From contig JAHFLL010000001.1 of NCBI GenBank assembly GCA_023244895.1, forward strand, positions 404,741-468,740: 64,000 bases of DNA, read 5' to 3'. The stretch comes from Candidatus Liptonbacteria bacterium. GTDB lineage: Bacteria > Patescibacteriota > Minisyncoccia > UBA6257 > 2-01-FULL-56-20. The translations under genes and the position numbers were made by a program. Of the stretch, positions 4,376 to 54,858 are shown in pieces (positions within the stretch are counted from its first letter, which is position 1; every line of letters starts with the position of its first letter). The notes under the pieces were generated by a model. It was not told the DNA's origin. It saw nothing but the letters and a program-made list of their open reading frames with translations, and did not search any database.

Positions 4376-4828
4376 ATGTCTAAAAACGCGGCGTTGGGAG
4401 CGATACTCGTTTTGAGCATCTTTTACCCCACCCAAGGAGAGGTAATCCACGCGGATTTCGAACTGGATATACCTACCCATACTCAGACCACTGTCTCAAC
4501 CACCCTGGCTTCCGTACCGACGATTAAAGCTGTCTCGGCTAGAACCAGGACGGTTAAAGTCACCGCCTACACCAGCAGCCCGGAAGAAACGGATGATACT
4601 CCATTCATAACCGCTTCCGGTAAAACCGTGCGGGATGGCATAGTCGCCAGCAACTTTCTCCCCCTGGGAACCAGGGTCAAAATTCCTACCCTATTCGGCG
4701 ACAAAATCTTTGTGGTAGAAGACCGCATGCACCCCAGGATGAAAAACGTGGTGGATATTTGGATGGAAAAGAAAGAAGATGCCCTCAAATTCGGATTCAA
4801 AAATGCCGAGATAGCAATCTTGGACTAG
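4376..4828 (+). CDS. 3D-domain (MltA-like double-psi beta-barrel) protein with signal peptide
   Basis: 150 aa with an N-terminal hydrophobic leader and the C-terminal 3D-domain pattern (VAYTSS, TASG, VASN, LPLGT, DRM). Confidence 0.6.
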   Translation: MSKNAALGAILVLSIFYPTQGEVIHADFELDIPTHTQTTVSTTLASVPTIKAVSARTRTVKVTAYTSSPEETDDTPFITASGKTVRDGIVASNFLPLGTRVKIPTLFGDKIFVVEDRMHPRMKNVVDIWMEKKEDALKFGFKNAEIAILD

Positions 4829-4876
4829 AAAATAGAATTTAGTAGTTAGAAGTTAGTAGATAATGCGCGCAATAAC

Positions 4877-8630: not shown

Positions 8631-9710
8631 ATGACCAAAGAAGAACTGGGAGGGAAAATATCTAATCTAAAAATTTCACGCGGGAAAAAATCGGAAGCGC
8701 TCATAGAGGGAGAAATCACGGTAGAGACCATGCGCCCCTATGCGGAGGCGGTAGTCAAAGAAGCCGGTAAAGATTTTGAGATGCCCGGCTTCCGCAAAGG
8801 CCAGGTTCCAGAGAACATATTACGCCAGAATTTAAATATGGCGCACGTCTGGTCGGATGCCGCCCATGATGCCCTGGGCGACTTATATCCCGAGATATTG
8901 GAGCTCCATGAGTTAGCGGTCATTAGTTCTCCGCGCGTGACGTTCACCAAGCTTGCTCCGGAAAATCCGCTCGGTTTTCAAATAGAAATAGGCTTAATGC
9001 CGGAATTCAAATTGCCGGACTATAAAAAAATAGGCAAAAAAGCTGCTGAAACAAAAAAAATAGCGGAAACGACCGAGGCGGAGATAGAAGAAACCATAGC
9101 CTACATCAAGAAGTCTCGAGAGAAAAGCCAGCAAGACAAAGAATTGACGGATGAAAATATTAAAGAATTCGGAGATTTCAAAAACCTGGCGGAATTCCGT
9201 GCGCGCATTAAGGAAAATCTTTTACATGAGAAAGAGATGGATGCGAGTCGCGCGATTCGGGAACAAATAGCTAAAGACTTAGCGGAAGCTACCAAGATAG
9301 AGCTTCCGGAAATAGTTGTGGAAGAAGAACTCCAAATTATGCGCAAGGATCGCGCCGCGGAACTGGACCGTCTTAAAATGTCCACCGAAGATTATTTAAA
9401 GCAGTTGAATAAAACTGCGCAGGAGCTGGAGAAGCAGGAACTGGAATACGTGGAGCGTCAGCTCAAAACGCGCCTGATACTCGGTAAGATAGCGGAAGAA
9501 GAAAAGATAGTACCGGAAGAAAAGGAAGTGGAACAAAACTCGGAATATTTAATGAGGCGCCACCCGGAAAGCGACCCGGAACAGGTCTACCATTACGTTG
9601 TGAATATGCTGACCAACGAGCTGGTCTTGGAGCTACTGGAAGGCAAGAAAAAAGACACGCAAGCTCAAGAGAAGACGGGAAAACCGAAAGACAAGCCGGA
9701 GGAGAAATAA
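8631..9710 (+). CDS. tig: Trigger factor (short form)
   Basis: 359 aa. The N-terminal GFRKGQVP motif is diagnostic of the trigger-factor ribosome-binding domain. The C-terminus is long and helical. An extended -10 (TATATAAT) lies upstream. Confidence 0.65.
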   Translation: MTKEELGGKISNLKISRGKKSEALIEGEITVETMRPYAEAVVKEAGKDFEMPGFRKGQVPENILRQNLNMAHVWSDAAHDALGDLYPEILELHELAVISSPRVTFTKLAPENPLGFQIEIGLMPEFKLPDYKKIGKKAAETKKIAETTEAEIEETIAYIKKSREKSQQDKELTDENIKEFGDFKNLAEFRARIKENLLHEKEMDASRAIREQIAKDLAEATKIELPEIVVEEELQIMRKDRAAELDRLKMSTEDYLKQLNKTAQELEKQELEYVERQLKTRLILGKIAEEEKIVPEEKEVEQNSEYLMRRHPESDPEQVYHYVVNMLTNELVLELLEGKKKDTQAQEKTGKPKDKPEEK

Positions 9711-11904: not shown

Positions 11905-12939
11905 TCATACTATAATCATTCCGTCGCCGAAAGAAAAGAGGCGAAATTTGTGTTTAATGGCAAATCGGTAGATATTCATAATCTCTTTGCGGGAAGACAA
12001 AGCGGAGACCAGCATCAATAAACTGGATTTCGGTACGTGGAAATTGGTGATCAAACCATCCAGAGACTTGAACTTATAACCCGGTCGGATAAAAAGATCC
12101 GTCTCGCCCTTTTTAGGCATCAATTTCCCGGACTTTCCCGCGGCCGATTCCAATGTTCGCGCCACGGTAGTGCCAACCGCGACAATTTTTCTACCTTCCC
12201 GACGAGCCTTATTGATCTTCTCCGCCGCCGCCGCGGAAACAGAATATTCCTCCACGTGCAATCTGCCGGACCTCATATTTGCTTCGGTCACCGAAGCAAA
12301 AGTACCCAAATTTACGTGCAGAGTAGTAAGACATATCTCATGACCTTCCTCCCGCAAATCTTTTAACAATTTGCGAGTAAAATGAAGGGAAGCGGTGGGT
12401 GCCGCAACCGAGCCGGGTCTTTCCGCGAATACGGCCTGATATTCTCTGCGCAACTCTCTTTCTTTGAGCGGAGAATGTTTAATATATGGCGGAATCGGTG
12501 TCTTGCCGTACTTCCGGAGAATGCTCATAAACTTTCTTTTTGCAAAAAGGGTTTTCAGGTAATACTCTTTGCTGTTTTTGTTTTCTACTTCAAATCCGAA
12601 TTTATCCACGGTCAAGACCTCTCCCGGAATAACCTTCCTATCCATCAGAAACCTTAAGTCTCCGACAAATGTTCCCAAGTATAACCCCCTCACCCTGCCG
12701 CCGGTTTTTTTATGGAACTCCAAACGCGCCGGAACAACCTTGGTTTGATTCAAAACTAAAAGTGATTTAGGCGGGAGATACTTGGCAATATTCCTAAAAA
12801 CATCTACTGCTATCTTTTTAGTCTTTCTGTCGTAGATCAGAAGGCGCGCGCTATCTCTAGGATGCGCCGGTTTTTGAGCGATCAACTCCGCCGGAAACTC
12901 AAAATTATACTTCTCAAGCTCCGCCAAATTATTTTTCAT
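11905..12939 (-). CDS. queA: S-adenosylmethionine:tRNA ribosyltransferase-isomerase
   Basis: 344 aa with the QueA N-terminal pattern (LIAQKPAHPRDSARLLIY). Confidence 0.85.
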   Translation of the reverse strand: MKNNLAELEKYNFEFPAELIAQKPAHPRDSARLLIYDRKTKKIAVDVFRNIAKYLPPKSLLVLNQTKVVPARLEFHKKTGGRVRGLYLGTFVGDLRFLMDRKVIPGEVLTVDKFGFEVENKNSKEYYLKTLFAKRKFMSILRKYGKTPIPPYIKHSPLKERELRREYQAVFAERPGSVAAPTASLHFTRKLLKDLREEGHEICLTTLHVNLGTFASVTEANMRSGRLHVEEYSVSAAAAEKINKARREGRKIVAVGTTVARTLESAAGKSGKLMPKKGETDLFIRPGYKFKSLDGLITNFHVPKSSLLMLVSALSSRKEIMNIYRFAIKHKFRLFSFGDGMIIV

Positions 12940-31329: not shown

Positions 31330-31425
31330 TCCCTCTTCCGCTTTCTAACTTCTACTTCCAACCTCTATCTTCTATATTCTATCTACTAACTTCTACCCTC
31401 CACTATACTTGAGTATAGTACCGGG
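31330..31425. repeat. Pyrimidine-rich (CTTCTAC-type) tract plus inverted copy of the 23-bp palindromic motif (left island edge)
   Basis: On the plus strand the tract contains almost no G. It ends with CCACTATACTTGAGTATAGTACC. This is the reverse complement of the GGTACTATACTACGGTATAGCGG motif at 39842 and 41041. Confidence 0.5.
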
Positions 31426-31575
31426 GATGAGAGAGTGGGAGTTGAGAGAATGAGAGCTGGGGGGTGGGAGTTTTGGGGGGCGGGGTGGGGGTGGGGGTGG
31501 GAGGGAGAAAACGGGTTGGAAAACGCGAGGGGGTTATTTTTGAGATGGGATAAGGGTTGGTGGGGTCAGATATTT
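31426..31575 (+). repeat. G-rich, C-poor tract (GGGGGTGGG repeats), G-quadruplex-capable
   Basis: GGGGGGTGGGAGTTTTGGGGGGCGGGGTGGGGGTGGGGGTGGGAGGGAG and nearby sequence. On the minus strand, transcribed from the upstream operon, this reads as C-rich/G-poor, which is rut-site-like. Confidence 0.5.
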
Positions 31576-31648: not shown

Positions 31649-32404
31649 CTACCCAGTGGTCTTTTTGAGTTCTGGAACAGTCTCTTCGAGCAACGCCTTG
31701 ATTTGATCTGAGTCAAGTGAGGACAATGCGGAATATCCACCCCTGAGATTAAGCCTGCGCATTATCAGACGTACTTTTGCCTCCTTGCTATTCGAAAATA
31801 ATGTTGGATTTCCCACTACAAATTCAAGCACGGCGAATCGTATGGTCTCATTTCTTCCTTGGGCACCAGGCAATAGATGCGTGGTGTAGTCCAACATGGA
31901 AAATACCTCTCGGGTAAGGACGTAGGGATCTTTTGCGTCCTTCGTCTTCGTGAGAGAAACAACCCACCAGAGCCTTGCGATGTCGTTGTTCATCAACGAT
32001 GCGGGACTCATCGGATCGACAAACCAATGATCGAGAATATATTTACCTCGCTTACTTTCCTTCTGGGCGGATACATCCGTCCTCTTTTTCATATAGTCGA
32101 AAAAGTCCACGTGGGTAAGGTATGTCCAAAAGCGCTCATCCGATGCGTCTTCGGGGCTCAGCGCGCTGTACGCTTCGAAAAGTCGTATCGCGGCCTCCGC
32201 AGAATCCCTACTGCCCCCGCCCGGCGGGTTGGGAAATAATATTTTGGACATGGGAACCTTCAGAGACGACTGCACCGTATCGATATCTTCGACGGAGAAA
32301 CTTTCTCCTAAATATTTTTTTACGCCTTTCCCTGTACGCAAATCATCCTTCATTCTAACGAGGGCTGCGGTCGTAAATATCGGTCTGGTGTTTTTTTCTG
32401 GCAT
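31649..32404 (-). CDS. Hypothetical protein, 4th gene of GHKL-ATPase operon
   Basis: 251 aa. Its start lies 1 nt after the upstream stop. No recognisable family (motifs RFWTYLTHV and ILDHWF). Confidence 0.6.
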   Translation of the reverse strand: MPEKNTRPIFTTAALVRMKDDLRTGKGVKKYLGESFSVEDIDTVQSSLKVPMSKILFPNPPGGGSRDSAEAAIRLFEAYSALSPEDASDERFWTYLTHVDFFDYMKKRTDVSAQKESKRGKYILDHWFVDPMSPASLMNNDIARLWWVVSLTKTKDAKDPYVLTREVFSMLDYTTHLLPGAQGRNETIRFAVLEFVVGNPTLFSNSKEAKVRLIMRRLNLRGGYSALSSLDSDQIKALLEETVPELKKTTG

Positions 32405-32405
32405 A

Positions 32406-33257
32406 TCAGGAGAATGTTATTTTATCGACGATATTGTTGAGATCGTTCAGCGAATTGGTGAGGGGGTAGTCGAATATCGCTTGCACCAGCTCGGGGATAT
32501 TTTCCACCGAGACGCCTATGCGGCGCATTCGATCCTCTTTCATCAGGTCGGTCAGTTTCTTGTGCCACTTCCTGTGGTTGTGCGTGGCACTCCTATCTTC
32601 CGACAAAAACTCGCTCATCACCCAAAGCATAGCCGGATATACGTACAGCGATATGAATACTCGTTTCAAATCTTCGCTCTTTTTAATCTTCTTCATATTT
32701 TCGTAATCCTCTTCGGGTAACTTTATGAGGATAGGGTCCGACCCCAATTCGTACTTAACATCTTTCCCTGCATGCTTGTAGAACATGAAAAATGCGCCTT
32801 CCGATCCCGGCGTCTCCCAATCTTTGGTGACCTCGAAAGAATCGCTGCCGCTGTATCCGAGTATTTCACCCTTATGAACCGTGAAAGTTTGCCCATCGAA
32901 GAAATCTGTGGTGTAGGCATTTTTGTATCGCGGTATATCCTGTTTTGCGATAATCAAACACGTCGCCACAACCGTATCTCTGAGATATTTCGAATCTATC
33001 CTTATTTGCCCCGAACCGTCTCCAGGAAGCTCGAAGCCCATTCGATACATCGTCGAGGAACAGGATACGTCGACAAAGAAAACCGCCTTGCCGTCAGTTA
33101 TTAATTTCTCCATAGCTTCGTTATGGAGGACCTGAGAAACGGTCAAGATCGTCTCTTTGGCGATAACGAGTCCAATATGGGTCTCGAACCTACCGACGAT
33201 TTCGCCTCCGTCCTTGCGTAGTATTGGATGCGGCAACGATACAATGTCGAGTTTCAT
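32406..33257 (-). CDS. Hypothetical protein, 3rd gene of operon (possible PD-(D/E)xK-like motif GD...IDSK)
   Basis: 283 aa. ATGA overlap with the GHKL gene. The weak PD-x9-DxK pattern is speculative. Confidence 0.6.
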   Translation of the reverse strand: MKLDIVSLPHPILRKDGGEIVGRFETHIGLVIAKETILTVSQVLHNEAMEKLITDGKAVFFVDVSCSSTMYRMGFELPGDGSGQIRIDSKYLRDTVVATCLIIAKQDIPRYKNAYTTDFFDGQTFTVHKGEILGYSGSDSFEVTKDWETPGSEGAFFMFYKHAGKDVKYELGSDPILIKLPEEDYENMKKIKKSEDLKRVFISLYVYPAMLWVMSEFLSEDRSATHNHRKWHKKLTDLMKEDRMRRIGVSVENIPELVQAIFDYPLTNSLNDLNNIVDKITFS

Positions 33258-35155
33258 CGAGATTTTTTGATTAGTTCAAAAGCGTTGAGCTTCAGGGAAT
33301 ATTTTCCGGATTCCGAAAATTTTACCTTCAGTCTCCTTGCGCCCATTTTATTCAAAACAAGATCACGTATCTCGTTTGCATTGAAGCTGGGCTGATTTTT
33401 AACCGTCTTATCCGCTATGATCGTTTGCAAAACTAACCTCTCGGAAGAATCGTCGCCACCCGCAACTATTTGAACGATGTCTATTTTCTTTCCTGGCTCT
33501 CCCTTGATCTGAATCTGATGAGTCGGATTACTTTCGGAGTCGGAACCCGCAAATGAAAGGAATGCGATACCCGCTAGCGGTCGCGCGTCGTTATTCTTTG
33601 TTTTCGATTTTTTCTTTCCCTTGTTTCTCTTGTCGGCAACTGGAATATATACATCCCCACCTTCCTTCTCGGCGCGTTCTTTGATGCTCAGGATCTTCTT
33701 TTTTACTTTCAGATCCAAATTCCGCATTTCCTCGACGGTCACCTCGTCGCCGTATTCTTTTTGGGTGTATTCTTTTTCTCCGCCCTGCGCTCCAGAACCT
33801 TCGTCGGTATCCATTGCAATAAAATCCTCCAACCCCTCGATAGAAAGATATCGTTCTTCCCGAGAGGTGCTCAGTTTTTGCAACTCCCTTTTGATAAAAT
33901 TCTCCATTTCCAGATACGCCAACTTGGCCTTTTCGCGATTCTCTTGCGTTTTGGCGTTCTCCCATTTCCATTCGTTGTGTTCCTGGTTCTCCATCTCCCT
34001 GAGGAGCGCATTACCATTTTCGTTGTCGCAAATAAAAACCGCGGCATACCGATTCATCGAATTCTTCTTGATGCAGTCCACGACCATGCCGGGTTTCCGG
34101 ATCAAAGCCACCCGGTTGGGATACCCGTCAGCCAGTAAAAGATGCAAGCGAACCTTGCCGAGGTGATCCAATTCGTCCTCTATCGGAGCATCCTTACGAT
34201 AGGCGTAGTAGAGAGGTAGCGGGTTCGGCACATCCGTGTTGCCCCACTCGAAAGGAGCTTTGCTGAAATATTTATGGAGGAGGTGTTCGACGGTATTTTG
34301 ATTGATGGTTTCGTTTTCCTGCACCTTAACGGTAAGCTTGCCCGTAATGATGGGCAGCCAGAAATAGCGGAGGATCGATTGAACCAATTCTGAGGCCCAA
34401 TCGTCCTCACCGATGAAATCGGGGATTAAAAAGTCCGTGCCAGGTCTTATTCGCTTAAACACGCTCGGAAAAAGCTTGGTGAAATTAGTTGGGATGAGAT
34501 CGCGGTCGTGAATCGGCTTTTGATCACCCACGCCGTAGGTACCGTTATTTTGTTTTCGCTTCCCGTCTTCTTCGAACGTGGTAACGATGGTTTTCCCAGC
34601 GAAGGTATAAGAGTTGGCCTCGTCGATACTGGAAATGAAAAGGGAAAGAAAGCCGGACGAGACATAGTAAGCGCCTTTTCCCAGACCGAACGATCCACCG
34701 CTCCCAGACTGTTTATTGCTGAAACCGACGGATTCCGCAAACCGGAACCAGTTCTCTTTTGTCATGCCGACAGTATTGAAATCACTGATCCTGAGAACTT
34801 TGACCGTGGTATTTTTCGAGATTTTACTCGCTCCTTTCTCGAATTCGACTGCCGTATCAATCGCTCCTTTCTCCCTCAAATAAACGGCGCACGCCGAAAG
34901 TATCTTCGCGAGCCGCTCGGCTCCAGGCACGCTTTTGGCGGGCATCGTAACAACGCTGAATTCAGCTTCAACGGGCTTCCCTGAACTCGAATCGTGCGCG
35001 TCCATTATATTTTGGAGGGCCTCTCGGGCGATATAGTAGGAAGGATTACCGCGAAATTCAACCGTGGGCCCAGCATTCGGGCCATCGGCCATACCCCCCC
35101 CGAGATCCCCGAAAATCCATTCAGGCTTATTTGAATCTGTTGAAGTCTTGGGCAT
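33254..35155 (-). CDS. GHKL-superfamily ATPase (Hsp90/MORC/MutL-like Bergerat fold), 2nd gene of operon
   Basis: 633 aa with N-box EALQNIMDA, G1 box DFNTVGMTKE (Hsp90-like DxGxGMTK) and G2 GSGGSFGLGKG. It also has a Lys-rich low-complexity linker and a ~100-aa C-terminal domain. Confidence 0.7.
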   Translation of the reverse strand: MPKTSTDSNKPEWIFGDLGGGMADGPNAGPTVEFRGNPSYYIAREALQNIMDAHDSSSGKPVEAEFSVVTMPAKSVPGAERLAKILSACAVYLREKGAIDTAVEFEKGASKISKNTTVKVLRISDFNTVGMTKENWFRFAESVGFSNKQSGSGGSFGLGKGAYYVSSGFLSLFISSIDEANSYTFAGKTIVTTFEEDGKRKQNNGTYGVGDQKPIHDRDLIPTNFTKLFPSVFKRIRPGTDFLIPDFIGEDDWASELVQSILRYFWLPIITGKLTVKVQENETINQNTVEHLLHKYFSKAPFEWGNTDVPNPLPLYYAYRKDAPIEDELDHLGKVRLHLLLADGYPNRVALIRKPGMVVDCIKKNSMNRYAAVFICDNENGNALLREMENQEHNEWKWENAKTQENREKAKLAYLEMENFIKRELQKLSTSREERYLSIEGLEDFIAMDTDEGSGAQGGEKEYTQKEYGDEVTVEEMRNLDLKVKKKILSIKERAEKEGGDVYIPVADKRNKGKKKSKTKNNDARPLAGIAFLSFAGSDSESNPTHQIQIKGEPGKKIDIVQIVAGGDDSSERLVLQTIIADKTVKNQPSFNANEIRDLVLNKMGARRLKVKFSESGKYSLKLNAFELIKKSR

Positions 35156-35157
35156 TT

Positions 35158-35388
35158 TTATAGTTCAAACTCCTTCTCTTGTTTTTCTTCACCCCGAAAA
35201 CGAGCTTCCGCCTTCGCAAGCGCGTCTTTCATCGCCCCGAAAATCTTCCTTAATTGGTCTGGGGTGTAGTCGTAAAGCCCACGATTATGGAGATTGGAAA
35301 CGATCCGGATATCGTCGAGGACTTTCCTGACCCTTTTCTCCGCCAGCCGCTTGAACCGTTCCGCCTTTTGTTCGTTATTTTTTGACAT
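35158..35388 (-). CDS. Small helical basic protein, 1st gene of operon (possible DNA-binding/regulator)
   Basis: 76 aa. Its stop lies 2 nt before the GHKL ATG. A TTGACA-17-TATACT promoter sits upstream. Confidence 0.45.
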   Translation of the reverse strand: MSKNNEQKAERFKRLAEKRVRKVLDDIRIVSNLHNRGLYDYTPDQLRKIFGAMKDALAKAEARFRGEEKQEKEFEL

Positions 35389-35412
35389 AGTATTTTAGGA
35401 AGTATTTCCTGA

Positions 35413-35441
35413 AGTATATTCTATAGTATTTTCTATGTCAA
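35413..35441 (-). promoter_or_regulatory. Sigma70-like promoter for the 4-gene operon (TTGACA-17-TATACT on minus strand)
   Basis: Read directly from the sequence. It lies just downstream of a small GC hairpin that terminates vsr. Confidence 0.4.
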
Positions 35442-35446
35442 GTCTC

Positions 35447-35869
35447 TTATCTTCGGGCCTCTTCGGGGCCTAAACACCTCTTCATTTTGGTCTCTACGCG
35501 ATCCGGATGCTTCTTTATGACCGATCCCCAGAATCGGAGCACCTTATAACCGCGTTTGCGTAGTTCCCTGATCTGACGGCTGTCCCTTTTTATATTCGCA
35601 GCAATTTTTGATTTCCAAAAATCGGGAATTCGTGCGCCCCATTTTTTAAGCCCTCTTCCATGCCAAAAATCGCCATCCGCGAAGATGGCGATTTTATTTT
35701 TCACAAAGACAATGTCGGGTTTTCCCGGGAGACTGGCTACGTTTTTTCTGTAGCGTTCAATTTTCCAAAAAGGCCTGACTATTCTGCCCAATAGTTTTTC
35801 GATGTCGGTATTTTTTGTACCGACTTTCTTCATCAATACGCTACGCGCTTCTTTGGTTAATTTATCCAT
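35447..35869 (-). CDS. vsr: Very-short-patch-repair endonuclease
   Basis: Motif FADGDFWHGR (compare the FVDGCFWHGH Vsr signature) with conserved Asp/His. The start is probably internal MDKLT. Confidence 0.75.
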   Translation of the reverse strand: MDKLTKEARSVLMKKVGTKNTDIEKLLGRIVRPFWKIERYRKNVASLPGKPDIVFVKNKIAIFADGDFWHGRGLKKWGARIPDFWKSKIAANIKRDSRQIRELRKRGYKVLRFWGSVIKKHPDRVETKMKRCLGPEEARR

Positions 35870-36389
35870 GCTCCTCGACGCGTGGATAAATAATGCGTGC
35901 CTCTGCGACAAGAGCTTTAGTAACTGTTATATTCCATCCCCGCATAGTCTTGTGCCACTTCTTCAGTCTGAAAAATTGTTCCCATGTGATCTCTAAAATT
36001 TTCTTTGGCTGCAGATTCTGATCTATTAAAACAATAACGACGTACTCGAATTTCTTTTCCGAGGGATGCTCGATTTCGGGATCACCGAGTCCGTAAAAAA
36101 CACTCGTCAAACTGTTCGGCTCGGTAATTGTCTTTATGCTGTACCTGTCTCCCTTCCGACTCAATGCATCAACATTCTGGGTTCCTTCCGGAGCTGCTTG
36201 GAGCTTAGGCAACCCGGGAATTTTGTTATATGTTTCGATGGCCAAAAACTCGCCACGTTCCCCGGTGATGTTCTTGGTCCGTATTAACCCTCGCTTTTTC
36301 AAAAGAGTAATCGCAAACGCGTAGACGCTCCACACGACGTCATCACTGGCAGCCTCTATCTTCTCAAATATCTCAAATTCCTTTCCCAT
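35862..36389 (-). CDS. Hypothetical protein between dcm and vsr (R-M associated)
   Basis: 175 aa, translationally coupled to its neighbours. No recognised family. Confidence 0.45.
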   Translation of the reverse strand: MGKEFEIFEKIEAASDDVVWSVYAFAITLLKKRGLIRTKNITGERGEFLAIETYNKIPGLPKLQAAPEGTQNVDALSRKGDRYSIKTITEPNSLTSVFYGLGDPEIEHPSEKKFEYVVIVLIDQNLQPKKILEITWEQFFRLKKWHKTMRGWNITVTKALVAEARIIYPRVEEHG

Positions 36390-36397
36390 GAGTAAAT

Positions 36398-37384
36398 CTA
36401 CAGAAATTTTATTATTTCACGGCCAATTTCCCGTATCACGTTTATCGCCACGCTATTTCCGAGCTGCTTGAGCATCTGCGTATGTGTAACCGTTGTTGGA
36501 AAATCGAAATCCGCCGGAAATCCCATCATCGTTTTCATCTCACCCACAGTCAAGACATGTTTTTCCCCTCCAACAATATATGTATCCCAACTCCTCTTGT
36601 CCACAAACCATTCTCCGTTTCTTTTTTTGTATACTGGCGACCCGCGCCCACCAACTCGAATGGTTCTCCCTATCTTGTTCGGCCATTTCTTATCTTTAAA
36701 GAATTTACATAAAGTCGTGCCTCCTGGACTAGTTGGCTTTGGGAATTTAAATTCCTTGGCGCCAGGCGCTCCTTTTTTAAAGGCCACTAAATAAAATCTG
36801 GGTCGAGCGGTCGGCAGACCGAAATCGCTGGCATTCAGAAAGTTCCAGGAATCGTCTCGCTCCTCGTTTACGTAATATCCAGCCCTGTCCAGTTTTTCCA
36901 AGATAATTTGGAACGTATGCTTATTGTCGTGATTAACAATGTTCCTCACGTTCTCCAGAAAAATAACCTTCGGCTGCTTGGCCAAAATTATTCTCTCTAT
37001 GTCACCGAATAGGGTGCCTCTGTCATCATCAAATCCCCGTTTTTGTCCGATACGACTGAACGGTTGGCATGGGAAACCAGCACACAATACATCGAATTTT
37101 GGTATAACCCTTTTTATATTTTTATCCCAAATTGTTTTTGATTGCCCAGTATCAGTAAGGGTTATGTCCTTTATGCTTTTCCAAAAATAGGGTTCGCGCT
37201 TCTTGCTTTTAAACAATTCGGGGTTGGTCTTACGAAAATTATGCTCGTATGTCTTCCGTGCATTCTCGTCGAATTCATTTACGAACACGCATTCACCGCC
37301 GAGCTCCTGTAGCGCGAGATGGAATCCACCGATTCCAGCGAAAAGGTCAATAAATGTAAACTTTGGCCTCCTTTTCTTTTTCAT
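36398..37384 (-). CDS. dcm: DNA (cytosine-5)-methyltransferase
   Basis: Motif I FIDLFAGIGG, motif IV GFPCQPFS, ENV, and the C-terminal target-recognition and motif IX/X pattern. Confidence 0.85.
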   Translation of the reverse strand: MKKKRRPKFTFIDLFAGIGGFHLALQELGGECVFVNEFDENARKTYEHNFRKTNPELFKSKKREPYFWKSIKDITLTDTGQSKTIWDKNIKRVIPKFDVLCAGFPCQPFSRIGQKRGFDDDRGTLFGDIERIILAKQPKVIFLENVRNIVNHDNKHTFQIILEKLDRAGYYVNEERDDSWNFLNASDFGLPTARPRFYLVAFKKGAPGAKEFKFPKPTSPGGTTLCKFFKDKKWPNKIGRTIRVGGRGSPVYKKRNGEWFVDKRSWDTYIVGGEKHVLTVGEMKTMMGFPADFDFPTTVTHTQMLKQLGNSVAINVIREIGREIIKFL

Positions 37385-37464
37385 TATTTATACAATCAGA
37401 ATAGCATAATTTCCCTCCATTTTCACAGATTTATATACCCCAGCGATGCGCCAGAGCGAATGGT

Positions 37465-38475
37465 TTATCTTGCTTTATGGGATAGCTCAAATAACTTGTC
37501 CTTTATGCTTTCAAACTGGGCTCTAGTAATTGGATATGGTGTACCCCCGCCATGATTGAAAGAGTTTGAAAATGGCTCGCTGAATTCTCCCTGTTTCCCA
37601 AATTTCAGCTCAATATCCTTCTTGGACTTTTTCTTTATCTCAAAATCAACAAAGTGAGGCCAGTGCCGGTTATTTATTTCCAGGGTCCTTCTCTGATCTT
37701 CAAAAAATGTCCCCCTGTGGTTGTCGAGCGCCATATAATACGGTTCGACAATACTGCAAATGTAGTATCTGTAAATAGTTATCTCCGTCTTAGGGTTTTT
37801 GGGCATAGCCATACTATTCCCGGCCTTACCGAATATAAAAAGTATCTTGTCGCCTTTCTGCATATCCAGAATATGCGGCAATGCTTTTGCATGCTGTCGG
37901 AATGCCCAGAACGGCTTAGAGGGCTTACTCTTGAGCATCCTATCAAAGTTCTTCACCGCAGGGCCATTGGCTCCTCCTTTTAAGAATACGACCCAATATT
38001 GACTCTTGCTTGAAAGATTCTTGCTCTCGGCCTGATAAATTAGAGACTCCCGCGAGAGCCGAGAAATATTTTCCGCGACCCAATCGGCAAAATCATCATG
38101 GTCAATGGCTACAACGTCTATCCCCTCATATGTCTTTAAATCAGTCTCCCCAAGGACAACAACAAAACCATCTTTTTCTTTTATATATCTTTTCTGATTG
38201 TCTTTCTTAAAATCGGTTAAATGCCATTTGACCTCTACCGGTATGCCGTTCTGCCGTTTTTTAAAAAAGATCTCCAGGTCGGCTCGATAACGAGCTTCTG
38301 TCTTGGACCCTTCGGGTACAATAAGATTTATCTGATCTTTTTGGAGTCTTTCCGGAAGCAATTTTCTCCTCTGGCCAGAATCACCAAAATAATATCTTTC
38401 GAAAAGATAACGGTGGATCAGCTTTTCGTTAAAGGCATTTCGGTTGATCTTTTTGAAGATATCCAGTCCGCTCAT
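37465..38475 (-). CDS. Putative type II restriction endonuclease (N-terminal PD-(D/E)xK: RADLEIF...PVEVKW)
   Basis: 336 aa, located immediately upstream of dcm on the same strand. It has a D-x12-EVK motif. This is an inference. Confidence 0.5.
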   Translation of the reverse strand: MSGLDIFKKINRNAFNEKLIHRYLFERYYFGDSGQRRKLLPERLQKDQINLIVPEGSKTEARYRADLEIFFKKRQNGIPVEVKWHLTDFKKDNQKRYIKEKDGFVVVLGETDLKTYEGIDVVAIDHDDFADWVAENISRLSRESLIYQAESKNLSSKSQYWVVFLKGGANGPAVKNFDRMLKSKPSKPFWAFRQHAKALPHILDMQKGDKILFIFGKAGNSMAMPKNPKTEITIYRYYICSIVEPYYMALDNHRGTFFEDQRRTLEINNRHWPHFVDFEIKKKSKKDIELKFGKQGEFSEPFSNSFNHGGGTPYPITRAQFESIKDKLFELSHKAR

Positions 38476-38610
38476 TAAAATCTCTTATGTTTTTTATGAC
38501 CTACCCCTTCTTCCAATCCCTGATGGTGAATCCGCCGGGGGGAAGTTTTGGGCTCTTATTTACCTTAAATAATATGCCCCTCTTTTGGCTTTAGCAAGAA
38601 TAAAATTCAA

Positions 38611-38694
38611 GGCAGTAAGTAGATAGTAGCAAGTAGTAGGTAGAAGGCGGAGTATATAAAAAAGAACCAGCCCCGGACGCGCGTCGCGCCGGGG
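38611..38694. repeat. Composite repeat copy 1: C-depleted GTAG/TAGAAG tract + 48-bp terminator module (GCGGAGTATATAA..CCCCGGACGCGCGTCGCGCCGGGG)
   Basis: 47 of 48 bp match 39974..40021. On the minus strand this is a hairpin plus T-run terminating the PNP gene. Confidence 0.55.
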
Positions 38695-38726
38695 CCGGAA
38701 TAGAATCCGTCTGACTTCTCCGCCAC

Positions 38727-39614
38727 TTACGCCGCTTCGCTCCGGCGGTAGAGCTCGAAGAACCTGAGGAAGATCTTGGCGACACGCCGGCGGACCGGCG
38801 GGCTCTTCAAGACCCTCACGACCTCCTCGTGATTGGTCGCGTTTGTGCCATCCTTCTTGGTTGTATTGGACACGATGGAAACGGCGAGCGTGCGCAGACC
38901 GCGATTGGTCGCGACGATCACTTCGGGCGCGGTAGACATGCCCATCGCGTCCCCGCCCAGAATCCGAATCGCACGGACCTCCGCGGGGGTCTCGTAGGTC
39001 CGTCCGGTCTGGACGAAGAGCACGCCCCTGTGGACACGCCGAGACTCTCGCACGATTGCGGCCGCGCGGTGGAACATACTGCGCAGCTTCAGGTCGTACG
39101 TGCCGACCTTGGGGTACATGGGCTGGAAGTACCAGTTGCTCCCAAAGTCCAAATGCGGTCCGAGAAGCGGGTTGGGCATCGCGAGAGCGATGTGGTCCGT
39201 GACCACCATCAGATCTCCGACCTTGTAGGACATGTTCGCCGCGCCGACTGCGTTGGTCGACATGTAGATCTGGACACCGAGCTCCGCCATCACCTGGACG
39301 GCGAGGGTAACCCACCACATCGCCCGCGGGTCGGGAGCGGCGTTGTAGTAGTGCTCCCGGCCGGACAAGGCGAAAACGGGCACGCCAGCGATGGTCCCGT
39401 AGATCAGCTCGCCCTTGTGCCCCGGAGCGCTCACGCCCGGGAAACCGGGAATCAGCCGATACGGGATCACAACCTCCTTCACCATCTGCTCGGCGAGGTC
39501 GTCCATCCCCGAGCCTAGCGTGAGCGAAATCTTGGGCATGGGGCCATTCACCCTGCTCCGGATGTAGGCTGCCGCCGCCCGAACCTTGGCCACGTAGACT
39601 TTCGGCGAGATCAT
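38727..39614 (-). CDS. Purine nucleoside phosphorylase (PunA/MTAP family), GC-rich foreign cassette
   Basis: 295 aa with GSGMDDLAE, SGREHYY and MGMSTAPEVIVA...NHEEV. A strong SD (GGGAGG) lies upstream. The gene is markedly GC-richer than the genome. Confidence 0.8.
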   Translation of the reverse strand: MISPKVYVAKVRAAAAYIRSRVNGPMPKISLTLGSGMDDLAEQMVKEVVIPYRLIPGFPGVSAPGHKGELIYGTIAGVPVFALSGREHYYNAAPDPRAMWWVTLAVQVMAELGVQIYMSTNAVGAANMSYKVGDLMVVTDHIALAMPNPLLGPHLDFGSNWYFQPMYPKVGTYDLKLRSMFHRAAAIVRESRRVHRGVLFVQTGRTYETPAEVRAIRILGGDAMGMSTAPEVIVATNRGLRTLAVSIVSNTTKKDGTNATNHEEVVRVLKSPPVRRRVAKIFLRFFELYRRSEAA

Positions 39615-39837
39615 CTCTCAGTCCCTCCCTGTTATGCCTCACGGAATAATATCAAAACCGTTTCGGATAGCTCCTCGCGGCTCATCACATCATTATGCAG
39701 TCAGGTATAAAAATCAATGTAGTAAGCGAAAGTAGAGGCTAGTAGCTAGAAGGTAGTAGGTAGCGAGCAAAATGAACCTAAACGGGAAAACACTGCTCAT
39801 CTCTCACTAACCCTATCTCCCCCAACTCACACCCCCG

Positions 39838-40021
39838 TGGTGGGTACTATACTACGGTATAGCGGAGGATAGTAGGTAGAATATATAAGGTAGAAGTTGG
39901 AAGATGGGAAGTGGTAGGTAAAAAGCGAGGGGTAGAAGTTAGAAGATAGAAGTTGGAAGGTAGAAAGTAGAATGCGGAGTATATAAGAAAGAACCAGCCC
40001 CGGACGCGCGTCGCGCCGGGG
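39838..40021. repeat. Composite repeat copy 2: 23-bp palindromic motif + C-depleted purine tract + 48-bp terminator module
   Basis: GGTACTATACTACGGTATAGCGG, then about 100 nt with almost no C (GGTAGAAGTTAGAAGATAGAAG...), then the terminator module for the lipoprotein gene. Confidence 0.55.
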
Positions 40022-40041
40022 CGGTCAATCTCATCATCCTA

Positions 40042-40746
40042 CTAGTCATAGAAGCGCGTCACCGGGGAGTAGTGCTCCCGGATGAAGGCGTTGAAGCAGG
40101 GACCTTCCTTCTGGCCACAGGCAAGCCAGCCTCTATACATAGTGGCACCGACCGGGTCCAGGTTGCGGCCCGCCCTCACTAGAGCAGAGACGGTATAGCG
40201 GCAGGTCCTGTCCCATGCGGTGACCTCGGAGGCGATCAGCGCCTCCTTACCGTCCACGTTGTCACAGCCACTCGCAAGATGCTCCAGCTCGTGGAGAAGA
40301 CCGATCACGATCGAGACTTCGAAGGTCTGCGGCGTGACCTTTCCGCTTCGATAGAACTGTAGCTGGGCCGGTACGAAGATCCGGAGCACGGGATTGCCAC
40401 CCCGAGCATCGCAACCGGCCAAGACGTCTCTGGAGCGGTTATTGAAGGACGTGCTGGCCTCGATGGCGAACACCTTGCCGTAGCGCTCAGCGCTCCGCCT
40501 GGAGAGCTCCAGATAACGGTTGTTGATGTCCGAAACCGAATACCTGGCCCGGAGCACCTCCTCCATCACGGTCCGGTTGAAGTGGGAGTCCCAGAACGCG
40601 TGGAGCTCCTCGTCCGAGAACTTGCGCTCCACCCTCTCCGCCACGGTGGGGGTGGGTTCATTCTTCTTGTCTATGGGGCAACCAAGAACCAGAAGAATGG
40701 TCGTCAGAAACAGGATGCGCGCCGTTCTTCCGCGTCGCATGGACAC
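40042..40746 (-). CDS. Lipoprotein with HExxH zinc-metallopeptidase motif, GC-rich cassette
   Basis: Signal peptide with lipobox LVLGC, HELEH motif, and an SD (AGGGGAGG) before a GTG/ATG start. Confidence 0.55.
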   Translation of the reverse strand: MSMRRGRTARILFLTTILLVLGCPIDKKNEPTPTVAERVERKFSDEELHAFWDSHFNRTVMEEVLRARYSVSDINNRYLELSRRSAERYGKVFAIEASTSFNNRSRDVLAGCDARGGNPVLRIFVPAQLQFYRSGKVTPQTFEVSIVIGLLHELEHLASGCDNVDGKEALIASEVTAWDRTCRYTVSALVRAGRNLDPVGATMYRGWLACGQKEGPCFNAFIREHYSPVTRFYD

Positions 40747-40895
40747 AGGTTGCCTCCCCTATTGTTTTGCCGTCATTGCGGCGATGGTAAACGAACCGAC
40801 CATATAATACAATTTTTCATGTAAAACACAAGATAACCCTCTTTCATTAATTATCTAGCCCCTCACGTCCCCAGCTTGACTAGGACATAGCACCA

Positions 40896-41064
40896 GGTAA
40901 CAAGTAGTGGCTAGTAATTAGTATTGAATAACGGTGAGTTAGAAGACGGTGGTTGGTAGTTAGAACGTGGAAAGTGGAACGTAGAACTACTGCCACTACT
41001 ACAATCATAATTCCGCTTACTCATCCATCAACCCCCACAGTGGGCACTATACTACGGTATAGTT
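40896..41064. repeat. Third copy of purine-rich tract + 23-bp palindromic motif (GTGGGCACTATACTACGGTATAG)
   Basis: Same orientation as the copy at 39842, and upstream of the plus-strand gene 41153. Confidence 0.45.
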
Positions 41065-41152
41065 ATCCACAGATAGGCATTGACGCACAGACTGGACGGC
41101 TATAGTTTTAAATCAGCCCCCGAAACGTTAACCTCTTTCAAGGAGCAGTGTC

Positions 41153-41392
41153 ATGGGTAGCAACAACACGCCACGGTACGAGGAAGACACTCGGCAGGTC
41201 TCCTCGGCCACCAGTGCGGCGGGCATGGCAGCGGCAGTCATGATTGCCGGGCCGTTCGCAGCGCTGTTCGTCGATCCGAACGACAAGTGGGAGCACACCA
41301 TCACCGATACCCAGACTGGTAACCAGGTTGTGGGTACCGGGAGCACCCCGCAAGAAGCTCGCGACGAAGCCCTGGGCAACATGCGTCGCTAA
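41153..41392 (+). CDS. Small hypothetical protein (79 aa), GC-rich
   Basis: AAGGAG sits 7 nt upstream of the ATG. No recognised family. Confidence 0.45.
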   Translation: MGSNNTPRYEEDTRQVSSATSAAGMAAAVMIAGPFAALFVDPNDKWEHTITDTQTGNQVVGTGSTPQEARDEALGNMRR

Positions 41393-41564
41393 TCGTTTAG
41401 CGAACATCCAGCCCGGATATAAAAAGAGGTACAGACACAAAAGTAAGGCAAGAAAGGGGCAAAATAGCCCGCCGCAATTAGCGGAAAATCCACAAGGCGC
41501 ATATTACGCGCGAGCCCCGGCTATTGCTAACGCACCCGGGGTTTTTGAATATTAAAATCAACAC

Positions 41565-41612
41565 AAAAAGCGAGACCCCGGACGCAGCACGATGCTGGCC
41601 GGGGCCCGAACT
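41565..41612 (-). terminator. GC hairpin terminator related to the CCCCGG..CCGGGG module
   Basis: Minus-strand GGGCCCCGGCCAGCA..TGCTGCGTCCGGGG followed by a T-rich run, located after the zinc-ribbon gene. Confidence 0.35.
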
Positions 41613-41631
41613 CTTCTCCACGCACAGAACG

Positions 41632-41895
41632 CTATTGCGGAGGCCAGATGGACTCGTCCTCGCAGACGGGACACTCGTAGCGATCTCCTCGCCTGGCCGA
41701 CTCTGGCAACTGCTTGTCGCAATTGGGGCAGACCGGTACCAAAACAGTGTCCTCGTTGGCGGGCAGTCGGCAACATTGCGGGCAGTAGCCCGCAACCTTG
41801 CCGTTTCGATCTTCTACCCTCTCCAGCAACCCTCCGCACGCCTTGTGCGCGGACCACCACTCTGTCGGCTTCAAGGCGATCGCCAGAACGCTCAT
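41632..41895 (-). CDS. Zinc-ribbon mini-protein (CPQCC...CPNC...CPVC)
   Basis: 87 aa with a strong SD (GGGAGGAG) and three CxxC pairs. Confidence 0.5.
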   Translation of the reverse strand: MSVLAIALKPTEWWSAHKACGGLLERVEDRNGKVAGYCPQCCRLPANEDTVLVPVCPNCDKQLPESARRGDRYECPVCEDESIWPPQ

Positions 41896-41908
41896 CCGAT
41901 TCTCCTCC

Positions 41909-42118
41909 CTAGCACCTGGTGCAGGATGTCACGGTGCAGTAGGTCTTGGATTCCGGTCCGCCGCTTCTGCGAGCGCTGTCGTTGCAGCCCTCGCAGACCA
42001 GGGCGTTTCCACCCCGGACCAGACCCGCGCCATTGCAGTGCGAGCACTTCTCGCCCTTCTTCCCGCCGCTCCCTCGGCAGAAGGAGCAATTCATGACCGG
42101 GACGTCTCCGAGCGCCAT
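41909..42118 (-). CDS. DnaJ-type zinc-finger mini-protein (CxxCxGxG repeats)
   Basis: Start taken at MALGDV with the SD GGGGGA. Motifs CSFCRGSGG, CSHCNGAG and CEGCN. Confidence 0.45.
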   Translation of the reverse strand: MALGDVPVMNCSFCRGSGGKKGEKCSHCNGAGLVRGGNALVCEGCNDSARRSGGPESKTYCTVTSCTRC

Positions 42119-42200
42119 GATGTCCCCCAATCCAGACACGGGATGTGTCTGCTGGAGATAGATTTTGATACAACCAGAAACAAAGTCAACGCCCAAGCGG

Positions 42201-43688
42201 TTAAAGCTCTCCCAAATCCAAGGTCTGGTCTATTCTTATTTTTTGCACAAAGTCCGGCACGTGGCTGACTAATATCATCGCGCCCTCGTAGCGATGTAAG
42301 GCTTCCGCTATAACCGGGATGTGGCGAAAGTTGATGTGATTAGTGGGTTCGTCCAAAATCAATAAACCCGGATGCTGTAAAGTAATTGCCGCAAAAGCAA
42401 CCAGGCCCTTTTGCCCTTCGGACAGAGCTCCTATCTTAGTTTTTAAAATATTGGCGTCCAATAAAAAGCCCGCCGCGTGAGAACGCAAAGACTCTATCGT
42501 CCCGCCCCGCACCACATCTTTTAGAGCGTCGTAAACGGTCTGCTCAAAATCCAGGGTGGAAAAATCCTGACGATAATACCCAACTCGAATCCCCTCCTGT
42601 ATATGCTCTCCCTTGGCGTGACCACTCGCGAGTTTTTCCAAGAGGGTTGTCTTGCCGATACCATTCGGTCCGGCAAGCAAGAGATGCTCTTTCTTTTTGA
42701 GGTCAATCTTAACTTTCTTTACGACCGGCTTGTGGTCTCTAATAACCGAGACCGAAGAAAGGCTCAAAATAACTCCGGTAATATCTTCCTGGCAGGGAAT
42801 GAAAAATTTACGAATAGTTTTATCTTCCTGACGTCCCTCCACCATATCGCCTTCCAGCTCCACTATTTTCTCATTCATCTTACGCGCCACGTCACGCATA
42901 TGCCCTCCCTTCTGAGCGAAAAAGTTGGCCTGCTCTTTACGGTGCGCGATATCTTTTTCCAGGCGCACATTTTTCATTCTTTCTCTCTCCAGGCGCGCCT
43001 TAATTTCTTCCACCACCGCCAGATAGTTGCCGGGGTACTGCTCCACCTTGCGGGTAAAGCTGTCCAAATAAAGCACTCCATGCGTAAAAGCATTCAAAAA
43101 ATCGGCGTCGTGCGAAATAACAATACAGGTTTTTTTATAATCAATTAGAAACTGGGTTAAGTGCGCGATGCCCTGCTTGTCCAAATTGTTGGTCGGCTCG
43201 TCGAGCAACAGAATATCCGAATCCTGAATCAACGCCTGGGCCAAGAGAATTCTGGCTTGCTGGCCTCCGGAAAAGGTCTTGAGCGCGCGCGTGAGCGGAG
43301 CGGAAAGATGCACCGCTTCCAAAACCTTTTTTACCCTGGGCTCAATATCATAAATCTTTTTAGGGAAGGCGCGCTCAAAAAATTCCAAAACGGAAAGTTC
43401 CAGTTCGCTCCGCGCGATAACCTGGCGGGCGGTCGCAATGCTTAAGCCCTTTTCCACTATCACGTCTCCCTCCTCCGGGGGAAGTTCTCCGGTGATAAGC
43501 TTAAAGATGGTGCTTTTGCCCGCACCATTCTGACCCATTAAAGTAACTTTCGCGCCACGACGCACGGAAAAGCTGGCGCCCGATAGGATTGGCTTTTGAT
43601 GTCCAAACTCAAAAACCACCTCATTGAAGCGAATAATCACCTCGCCGTGGACCGGCTTGGTCTCGATTGTAGCGGAAACTGGTTTCAT
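42201..43688 (-). CDS. ABC-F family ATPase (tandem ABC domains, EttA/Uup-like)
   Basis: 495 aa with two Walker A/signature/Walker B sets and no TM domain. Confidence 0.85.
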   Translation of the reverse strand: MKPVSATIETKPVHGEVIIRFNEVVFEFGHQKPILSGASFSVRRGAKVTLMGQNGAGKSTIFKLITGELPPEEGDVIVEKGLSIATARQVIARSELELSVLEFFERAFPKKIYDIEPRVKKVLEAVHLSAPLTRALKTFSGGQQARILLAQALIQDSDILLLDEPTNNLDKQGIAHLTQFLIDYKKTCIVISHDADFLNAFTHGVLYLDSFTRKVEQYPGNYLAVVEEIKARLERERMKNVRLEKDIAHRKEQANFFAQKGGHMRDVARKMNEKIVELEGDMVEGRQEDKTIRKFFIPCQEDITGVILSLSSVSVIRDHKPVVKKVKIDLKKKEHLLLAGPNGIGKTTLLEKLASGHAKGEHIQEGIRVGYYRQDFSTLDFEQTVYDALKDVVRGGTIESLRSHAAGFLLDANILKTKIGALSEGQKGLVAFAAITLQHPGLLILDEPTNHINFRHIPVIAEALHRYEGAMILVSHVPDFVQKIRIDQTLDLGEL

Positions 43689-48317: not shown

Positions 48318-48410
48318 CGCTCTCCTCCCCTGGCTACCACTTTCTACTTTGCACATTCCACCTTCTGTCTTCTAACTTCTACCCGCTACTTACTACCTAC
48401 TGTCCTATCA
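48318..48410. repeat. G-depleted (CTAC/CTTCTA) tract in divergent promoter region
   Basis: Plus strand reads CCACTTTCTACTTTGCACATTCCACCTTCTGTCTTCTAACTTCTACCCGCTACTTACTACCTACTG. Same family as the other GTAG tracts. Confidence 0.4.
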
Positions 48411-51531: not shown

Positions 51532-51565
51532 CTTTATTTTATATTTACCTACTACATACTACTTT

Positions 51566-51736
51566 CTACTTACTGTTCAACACTTTCTGTTCTACTCCAC
51601 ACCAGGGACAAAACCAGGCATTGCGCTTGGGCGCGTCAGCTATGGACCACCATTTATTACACTTCCCGCAACGAAAATGAGAAATCTGCTCCAATGAAAT
51701 TCTGCCCTGTAGTTTCTTCTTGTCTTCTGTTTTCAT
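51566..51736 (-). CDS. Possible small zinc-ribbon protein (CGKCNKWW...CPWCG)
   Basis: Internal Met start. The 3' end runs into the purine-rich tract upstream of pepF. Weak call. Confidence 0.25.
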   Translation of the reverse strand: MKTEDKKKLQGRISLEQISHFRCGKCNKWWSIADAPKRNAWFCPWCGVEQKVLNSK

Positions 51737-54565: not shown

Positions 54566-54858
54566 ATGGATGAGCCAATTATAAATCCAATTCACAAAAA
54601 ATATCCACAGACCGGGAAGTTTGACAGCTTTCTAAAACGGGCAGAATATTAACCTCGCACATTAGAAATATTTTAGGAATCTGGGGAAGCGGGTGTAAAT
54701 CCCGCACAGTGCCGCTACGGTGATCTCGATAATCTTATCGGGAAAGTCCGACTACCAGTCCTAGAACCTTTTGTGTTCCTCGAGCAAGGAACAAACTGAT
54801 TTTGTCCAATCAGGATCCCCTTGCTCTAGCGGGATTTTTTAGTTCCGCGCAGAACAAA

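Follow-up and report, generated by a model that had tools for sequence, protein, structure and literature searches.

Why do two unrelated foreign genes, lying one behind the other in a small bacterial chromosome, end in practically the same 48 bp? The question is raised by a 64,000-nucleotide stretch of a Candidatus Liptonbacteria genome (contig JAHFLL010000001.1; hereafter the window), in which the sequence GCGGAGTATATAA(A/G)AAAGAACCAGCCCCGGACGCGCGTCGCGCCGGGG occurs at 38647-38694 behind a gene of the PNP family and at 39974-40021 behind a lipoprotein-like gene. The underlying samples are from groundwater (SRR14366791/96, ERZ27279977). The window is chromosomal DNA of a bacterium of the Paceibacteria, a class of the Patescibacteria or candidate phyla radiation (CPR), and carries housekeeping genes for SecA, TypA/BipA, TGT, QueA, MetK and trigger factor; the closest match of its ABC-F protein among species-representative genomes is 77% identical. 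CPR bacteria have tiny genomes with few recognisable mobile elements, and their gain and shuffling of accessory genes are poorly understood. We conclude, with a probability of about 0.7, that the 48-mers belong to a lineage-specific family of intrinsic terminators that is reassorted by recombination in a flexible island, with no dedicated integrase. The locus offers a concrete pattern of foreign single-gene units that carry one terminator family and are swapped at a fixed slot beside defence genes, with breakpoints at short common non-coding modules instead of recombinase sites.

The two copies are spaced 1,327 bp apart and are identical at 47 of 48 positions, an A/G exchange being the sole difference. 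An earlier note on this DNA had reported the same match, which was confirmed by a direct sequence check and by 100 dinucleotide-preserving shuffles of the window, none of which contained the 48-mer even with three mismatches allowed. A third copy was not found in the 64 kb. Similarity continues leftwards at 83% into arrays of repeats with a period of seven nucleotides (nt), which brings the total to 87 nt (38609-38695 against 39936-40022), and it breaks off exactly at the 3' edge of a hairpin. The terminators of the two genes share an identical core of 35 nt.

On the minus strand each copy follows the same order of stop codon, 19-31 nt of unrelated 3' untranslated region (UTR), hairpin and U-tract. 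The hairpin, here called Type A, begins 31 nt past the stop codon of the PNP gene and 19 nt past that of the lipoprotein-like gene, in both cases on the sense strand of the gene, and has the form GCCCCGG-CGCG-ACG-CGCG-U-CCGGGGC with a few extra foot pairs and a 10-bp interrupted stem. It folds at -28.9 kcal/mol in the PNP copy (z -5.4) and at -26.8 kcal/mol in the lipoprotein copy (z -4.5), with none of 200 shuffles being as stable. Both hairpins are followed by UUCUUU(U/C)UUAUAU, i.e. UUCUUU(U/C)UUAUAUACUCCGC, and the U-rich tracts directly 3' of the extended stem read UUCUUUUUU and UUCUUUCUU in the two copies. The folds and positions agree with the proposal of the earlier note that each copy forms a GC hairpin and T-run after a cargo gene. 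A stable GC stem-loop with an immediate U-tract shortly after a co-oriented stop codon is the canonical layout of intrinsic terminators, and we infer from it that the two 48-mers are Rho-independent terminators, which would end transcription in vivo.

Native genes of the window were compared by scanning the 3' flanks of about 70 open reading frames (ORFs). Approximately 25 hairpin-plus-T-run candidates were found after native genes, all different in sequence, e.g. AACCCCCGGAACUCCGGGGGUU and AAACACCCCGCAAAGCGGGGUGUUU, and the three minus-strand hairpins of the island rank among the strongest in the scan. The 48-mer could have been simply the commonest terminator of this genome; within the window this is not the case, as none of about 65 native genes has a terminator like it. 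Two features set the pair apart from ordinary intrinsic terminators: one sequence family is common to several unrelated genes across genomes, and the two window copies are nearly identical, whereas native window terminators all differ from each other. The genes ahead of them are foreign in composition, as had been supposed. The G+C content at third codon positions (GC3) of the five island genes at 38.7-42.2 kb is 0.74-0.85 vs 0.52±0.05 (maximum 0.64) in the 65 other ORFs, and the spacers between the island genes have a native-like G+C content of 0.44-0.52.

The family extends beyond the two copies. Its hallmark is a CCCCGG/CCGGGG outer stem under variable inner stems, and it ends high-GC3 genes in the window and in two related lineages, which are represented by loci L173/L174 and L175. 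Type A, with the inner stem CGCG-ACG-CGCG, follows the lipoprotein gene in the window and its orthologue in L175, the DUF2103 gene of L173/L174 and the PNP gene of the window. Type B, with the inner stem CAGCA-loop-UGCUG, follows the Zn-ribbon gene of the window, a gene of 191 amino acids (aa) in L173 and the L175 homologue of the latter. A Type B variant (CCAGCAUCGUAGCUGC), preceded by a common leader of about 30 nt, follows the PNP gene of L173/L174 and, in L175, a 96-aa gene unrelated to it. The related hairpin which the earlier note saw after the Zn-ribbon gene is real (41576-41604) and has the same outer stem. Likewise, its suggestion that one 3' module is reused on unrelated genes is borne out by the presence of Type A after DUF2103 in relatives and by the different terminator of the PNP orthologue.

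Each of the nine family members is preceded by the stop codon of a co-oriented gene and leads into a U-rich tract; folding energies range from -24 to -30 kcal/mol (z -2.9 to -5.4). The outer stem is identical in the two types, and the inner stems stay paired although their sequences differ (CGCG/CGCG in Type A vs CAGCA/UGCUG in Type B), which is expected if structure is what is maintained. The Type A stretch common to unrelated genes across genomes comprises the hairpin and YUSGUUCUUUU (about 37 nt), running from the stem foot to the end of the T-tract, and is exactly a terminator. The idea that a promoter module might be shared as well is unsupported, since only this hairpin and U-tract are common across genomes. 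The TATATAA part of the 48-mer was considered separately as a plus-strand promoter, which was rejected for lack of an acceptable -35/-10 pair. GC3 values in L173 and L175 are 0.67-0.86 for genes that end in a Type A or B hairpin and 0.43-0.60 for neighbouring slot genes with no such hairpin.

Types A and B were absent from 80 other Paceibacteria ABC-F loci (1.35 Mb), which contained only four simple CCCCGG hairpins, and no copies were detected in approximately 60 kb of native window sequence or in 10 kb of native flank of loci L177/L178. Scanning public collections for AGAACCAGCCCCGG-N4-24-CCGGGGC returned 84 stretches of JGI metagenomes and one IMG/VR contig. These matches were rejected because they lack the ACGCGCGTCGCG loop and the TATATAA flank, and represent coding sequence or generic terminators on unrelated GC-rich contigs. 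With this pattern, which is narrow on the AGAACCAG side, where relatives have AACGAAC, the module was detected in neither JGI metagenomes nor IMG/VR. Comparison of the island by blastn with phage and plasmid collections gave zero matches, Rfam yielded nothing relevant at gathering or permissive thresholds, and the literature offered nothing specific on repeated terminators or intergenic repeats in Patescibacteria.

Related genomes show that the units lie in a hypervariable slot. Exact-protein look-ups and homology searches recovered three lineages: L173/L174 from groundwater metagenomes, with an ABC-F gene of 97% aa and 86% nt identity; L175, with a lipoprotein-like gene of 84% nt identity in a region of homology with window 40833..39985 that includes the terminator; and L177-L179, with an ABC-F protein of 91% aa identity. 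The ABC-F gene forms the left flank of the slot in the window, L173 and L177, and the sequence of L175 ends before this gene. The right boundary is a promoter/leader of about 110 nt, with roughly 90% conservation between genomes, that has a long match in L175 and has partial matches in L173 (12879-12916) and L177 (about 12600). It precedes a different gene in each genome: the 336-aa gene, a RadC gene, a T5orf172 gene and another gene. The predicted promoter/leader is a second case of a common non-coding module with exchangeable genes. Between the conserved flanks, gene sets differ in all four genomes (window, L173, L175 and L177; Table 1), and no self-mobility genes were found inside the variable region of the window and its relatives.

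The PNP gene provides the clearest view of an exchange. Its units in the window and L173 are homologous (39717..38723 in the window, 88% nt identity): the homology sets in at window position 39717, about 100 nt ahead of the start codon, continues past the stop codon and takes in part of the 3' UTR, where both units have GGCCCCGG. They diverge inside the hairpin, which is Type A in the window and the Type B variant in L173, and they re-align at CCTTGAATTT. This sequence directly follows the hairpin in L173 and L175; in the window it is found only after the Type A interior, the U-tract, TATACTCCGC and approximately 35 nt of period-7 repeats, which have displaced it. PNP orthologues with different terminators indicate that the terminator module was exchanged. 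The window lipoprotein terminator differs from its L175 orthologue by CCGGGG vs C-GGGG, CUGG vs UUCG and a loop change, so that the two window copies are more alike than orthologous copies are, pointing to a recent copying event within the locus, which is the simplest reading of the 47/48 identity. Most likely the Type A hairpin, the U-tract and the first period-7 bases from the lipoprotein 3' region overwrote the terminator region of the PNP gene. Gene conversion or unequal recombination could have achieved this, with the left crossover in or beside the common outer stem.

Several other explanations have to be weighed. The metagenome assembly might have joined high-GC fragments of another organism at a short repeat, and contigs from Logan (k=31) do stop at the repeat and leave the PNP unit separate. 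They break within the identical 35-mer, as a true repeat would cause, and for this reason the unit shows up as a 1,352-bp contig with identical ends. An independent ENA contig (k=141) that covers the lipoprotein gene, the repeat, the PNP gene, the repeat and a restriction-modification gene is, however, 100% identical to the window. Low-GC native-type spacers and high-GC genes also occur together on the same short contigs, and the same kind of mosaic is seen at the same locus in relatives, leaving an artefact hardly any probability. The short-k contigs concerned are L002 (equal to window 38666-40017), L004 and L171. In practical terms, the 35-nt identical core fragments short-k assemblies, and a chromosomal PNP cassette can pass for a small circular element in pipelines that use end overlaps. 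A local tandem duplication of one segment was named as an alternative by the earlier note, and part of it stands. In this reading a terminator and array would have been duplicated, the PNP gene would have landed in between, and other hairpin likeness would reflect common descent of neighbours. The window holds only two copies, they are more alike than orthologous copies, their similarity runs on into the adjoining array, and they do look like a recent local copy. The family members in relatives speak against the remainder: duplication leaves unexplained the Type A hairpin after DUF2103 in L173/L174 as well as the Type B variant and its leader after both the PNP gene of L173 and the unrelated 96-aa gene of L175, and we consider it an unlikely account of the whole.

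The integron-like assembly proposed in the earlier note, or some other site-specific system in which the hairpins are attC-like or dif-like (Xer) sites and the recombinase is encoded outside the window, has attractive features. Single-gene units are stacked at one locus as in integron attC cassettes, each closing in a conserved imperfect palindrome; the direct repeats on either side of the PNP unit are what a Campbell-type insertion would produce; and cassette content varies between relatives. Yet no integrase, transposase or REP-associated tyrosine transposase (RAYT) was found in the window by Pfam scans of all ORFs of at least 90 aa, with which precomputed Pfam results and the earlier note agree on the absence of an integrase. 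Neither the window nor the L173, L175 and L177 loci yielded a phage integrase domain or that of any other tyrosine or serine recombinase. No attC pair of RYYYAAC...GTTRRRY spaced 40-160 nt apart occurs on either strand of 38476-42200, where GTTRRRY is present once, and there is no IntI or common Pc promoter either. Orientation is mixed: the 79-aa ORF, one of four transcription units in the window, runs in the opposite direction, as do two genes in L173. Conserved promoter-like sequences stand ahead of the lipoprotein and PNP units. Furthermore, the common module coincides exactly with a hairpin followed by a U-tract, i.e. with the layout of a terminator, and inner arms vary in sequence and length around a 3-nt centre, unlike the 11-6-11 layout of dif. 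An Xer/dif (pdif-like) module was rejected specifically because a 6-8-bp centre and conserved 11-bp arms are required. Such a system thus appears highly improbable. Only marginally better placed, and still very unlikely, is a mobile hairpin resembling repetitive extragenic palindromic (REP) elements, REPINs or miniature inverted-repeat transposable elements that lands 3' of genes and is moved by a RAYT or an IS200/IS605-type enzyme encoded elsewhere. The hairpins do form a family of short GC-rich extragenic palindromes at gene 3' ends, able to stabilise or terminate transcripts like REP elements and bacterial interspersed mosaic elements; GTAG stands 5' of two Type B copies (GAGTAGAG); and other repeat families (the period-7 arrays and a palindrome) abound in the same genome. 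Unlike REP elements, they are not dispersed in the native window or the L177/L178 flank and are tied to high-GC3 genes, and no Y1 transposase (Y1_Tnp) domain was detected in the window ORFs scanned. The GTAG foot is not conserved, as the two cases follow homologous genes (60% aa identity over the common part) and the motif is missing from the remaining copies. Neither terminal inverted repeats beyond the stem nor target-site duplications are present.

Recombination, then, rather than a mobile-element enzyme, probably moves the hairpins, in keeping with a terminator family reassorted in a flexible island. Some points weigh against this conclusion. The family counts cover 64 kb of the window genome and three related lineages; the direction of copying, probably from the lipoprotein to the PNP gene, is a parsimony argument from two relatives; and no donor of the high-GC genes emerged, the closest PNP homologues outside the lineage (51-52% aa identity) being on low-GC contigs with unrelated terminators. 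A small share of the probability also stays with the site-specific and mobile-hairpin readings taken together, including a hairpin-specific enzyme elsewhere in the genome.

Mechanistically, the terminators would insulate separately transcribed foreign genes, and genes and terminators would be reassorted by recombination between short common non-coding modules within the slot. Gene conversion is one possible route and homologous or short-homology recombination another, in either case perhaps preceded by DNA uptake. RecA-dependent recombination in Escherichia coli requires a minimum of roughly 25-30 nt, which the 35-nt identical core exceeds, and occasional loop-out of the 1,327-bp PNP unit is therefore predicted. 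Natural competence and homologous recombination have been shown experimentally in Patescibacteria of another class, the Saccharibacteria (PMC10633639), and by analogy competence plausibly helps exchange at this slot. Should this hold more widely, the homology that keeps accessory genes exchangeable would be supplied by terminators and promoter leaders. A bolder version, which we regard as speculative and rather unlikely, would have the CCCCGG-stem terminators of CPR bacteria serve as functional joints in a cassette array that does without an integrase: stems, U-tracts and the leader would act as portable homology or template-switch anchors, by which self-contained units of promoter, gene and terminator could be taken up, released as circles and recombined at a dedicated hotspot next to the defence island.

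The kinds of element involved are known ones, intrinsic terminators on the one hand and flexible islands or minimal mobile elements on the other, and the locus is a variant of these. It resembles the minimal mobile elements of Neisseria and flexible (additive or replacement) islands in having different gene sets at a single syntenic site with conserved flanks, no mobility genes, and restriction-modification and defence genes close by. Exchange of the Neisseria elements is thought to proceed by transformation and homologous recombination (PMC1797815). In contrast to these, the host here is a CPR bacterium, and the junctions of single-gene units also bear short common non-coding modules (terminators and the promoter/leader). 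Common modules at internal junctions imply reassortment within the slot, not only via the flanking genes.

Table 1. Positions of the features discussed, in window coordinates, and gene content of the slot in the window and its relatives
Feature	Position	Strand	Details
48-mer copy 1, predicted Type A terminator of PNP gene	38647..38694	-	hairpin core 38670-38695; U-tract 38656-38669, then TATACTCCGC (start of period-7 array); dG -28.9 kcal/mol, z -5.4
48-mer copy 2, predicted Type A terminator of lipoprotein-like gene	39974..40021	-	hairpin core 39997-40022; U-tract 39983-39996; dG -26.8
Type B hairpin and U-run, ending CxxC/Zn-ribbon gene pair	41576..41604	-	CCCCGG-C-CAGCA-TCG-TGCTG-CGT-CCGGGG; dG -25.7 kcal/mol
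Hairpin with CCCCGG/CCGGGG outer stem, likely terminator of 79-aa ORF	41515..41541	+	followed by TTTTTG; read from sequence
Predicted promoter/leader, right boundary of slot	38502..38611	-	TTGAAT...TTGCTA-17-TATTAT...GGAAGAAGGGG; 92% identity to L175 3650-3756
PNP-family gene	38727..39614	-	295 aa; Pfam PNP_UDP_1 2e-33; GC3 0.85
Lipoprotein-like gene	40042..40746	-	234 aa; HELEH motif; GC3 0.78
79-aa ORF, opposite strand to other island genes	41153..41392	+	GC3 0.74; called as gene in three independent assemblies
Zn-ribbon protein gene	41632..41895	-	87 aa; weak Zn-ribbon matches below Pfam cut-offs; GC3 0.75
Small CxxC-rich protein gene	41909..42196	-	95-aa ORF, likely ATG near 42122; GC3 0.75; opens island right after ABC-F stop codon
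ABC-F ATPase gene, conserved native left flank of slot	42201..43688	-	97% and 91% aa identity in the two nearest relatives
Period-7 array adjoining copy 1	38607..38655	+	left part of 87-nt similarity
Native-type spacer between the two cassettes	39724..39974	+	arrays 39724-39774, 39867-39904 and 39929-39974 around palindrome ACTATACTACGGTATAG (39846-39862) and pyrimidine-rich arm
Period-7 array and second copy of 32-nt palindrome repeat	40895..41062	+	array 40895-40987; palindrome repeat 41031-41062
Period-7 array, native site	4819-4869	+	
Period-7 array, native site	31340-31409	-	
Period-7 array, native site	48361-48406	-	
Period-7 array, native site	51534-51583	-	
PDC-M33 candidate system, C	31649-32404		
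PDC-M33 candidate system, B	32406-33257		
PDC-M33 candidate system, A	33254-35155		
Vsr	35447-35869		
mREase_II-like gene	35862-36389		
Dcm methylase	36398-37384		
Unannotated 336-aa gene	37465-38475		
Slot content, window (in order)			CxxC, Zn-ribbon, 79 aa (-), lipoprotein, PNP
Slot content, L173			269 aa (-), 62 aa, DUF2103, fatty acid desaturase (-), 95 aa, DUF3160, Memo, 191 aa, PNP, 296 aa, 146 aa
Slot content, L175			..., 435 aa (-), 62 aa, lipoprotein, 96 aa
Slot content, L177			137 aa, 96 aa (-)

The leftmost third of the 87-nt similarity is part of a distinct, lineage-specific system of TAG-rich heptamer repeats, TAGAAGN. Five such arrays are located in the island and others at native intergenic sites, in either orientation relative to genes; L173 carries arrays at 8817-8984 and 12050-12183. 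In 80 other Paceibacteria loci (1.35 Mb) only four TAG-rich period-7 arrays were detected, in three loci. The arrays frequently occur linked to a palindrome, ACTATAC-N3/4-GTATAG, and to a pyrimidine-rich arm. This palindrome (GGTACTATAC-N3/4-GTATAG) lies between pyrimidine-rich (CTCTCAN-like) and purine-rich heptamer arms at 39831-39862, 41031-41062, 31402-31419 and about position 8986 of L173. The spacer between the two cassettes (39724-39974) is homologous to the native intergenic elements 31339-31422 and 48342-48409, and within it an 85-nt element (39843-39927) matches native element 31339-31422 on the opposite strand. No structured RNA was indicated in the 281-nt inter-cassette spacer, neither strand of which folds better than shuffles (z -0.75 and +0.97). 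At the left edge of the defence island, G-rich short tandem repeats (31427-31501; TGGGGG x4.7 and GAGAGTG-like 15-mers) lie next to the palindrome element, and Logan contig L172 breaks at them.

Tandem heptamers of a lineage-specific kind are familiar from cyanobacterial intergenic regions as short tandemly repeated repetitive (STRR) sequences. The arrays described here share with them the intergenic position, the seven-nucleotide unit and the restriction to a lineage; they differ in their unit, TAGAAGN, in belonging to another phylum and in being linked to a palindrome and a pyrimidine-rich arm. STRR repeats are mentioned in PMC4748335.

Among the genes of the island, the lipoprotein-like gene has only two homologues among 5.8 billion proteins, both in the same lineage, and a search for homologues outside this lineage found none. 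The signal peptide of its product ends in LVLGC, and HELEH is an HExxH motif. These features suggest a secreted or lipid-anchored zinc metallopeptidase. The conserved promoter-like sequences upstream of the lipoprotein and PNP genes are TTGTGT-16-(TG)TATTAT and TGATATTAT, which may act as promoters. Searches of PHROGs and PADLOC with the five island proteins gave zero matches.

Directly left of the cassettes, window positions 31649-38475 are occupied by a defence island comprising a PDC-M33 candidate system, Vsr, an mREase_II-like gene, a Dcm methylase and the unannotated 336-aa gene (Table 1). Elsewhere in the window, an adenosylcobalamin (AdoCbl, B12) riboswitch was identified at 54658-54801 on the plus strand (Rfam RF01482, 51.2 bits), and directly downstream of it lies a 625-aa gene with DUF4430 and prenyltransferase/cyclase-like repeats.

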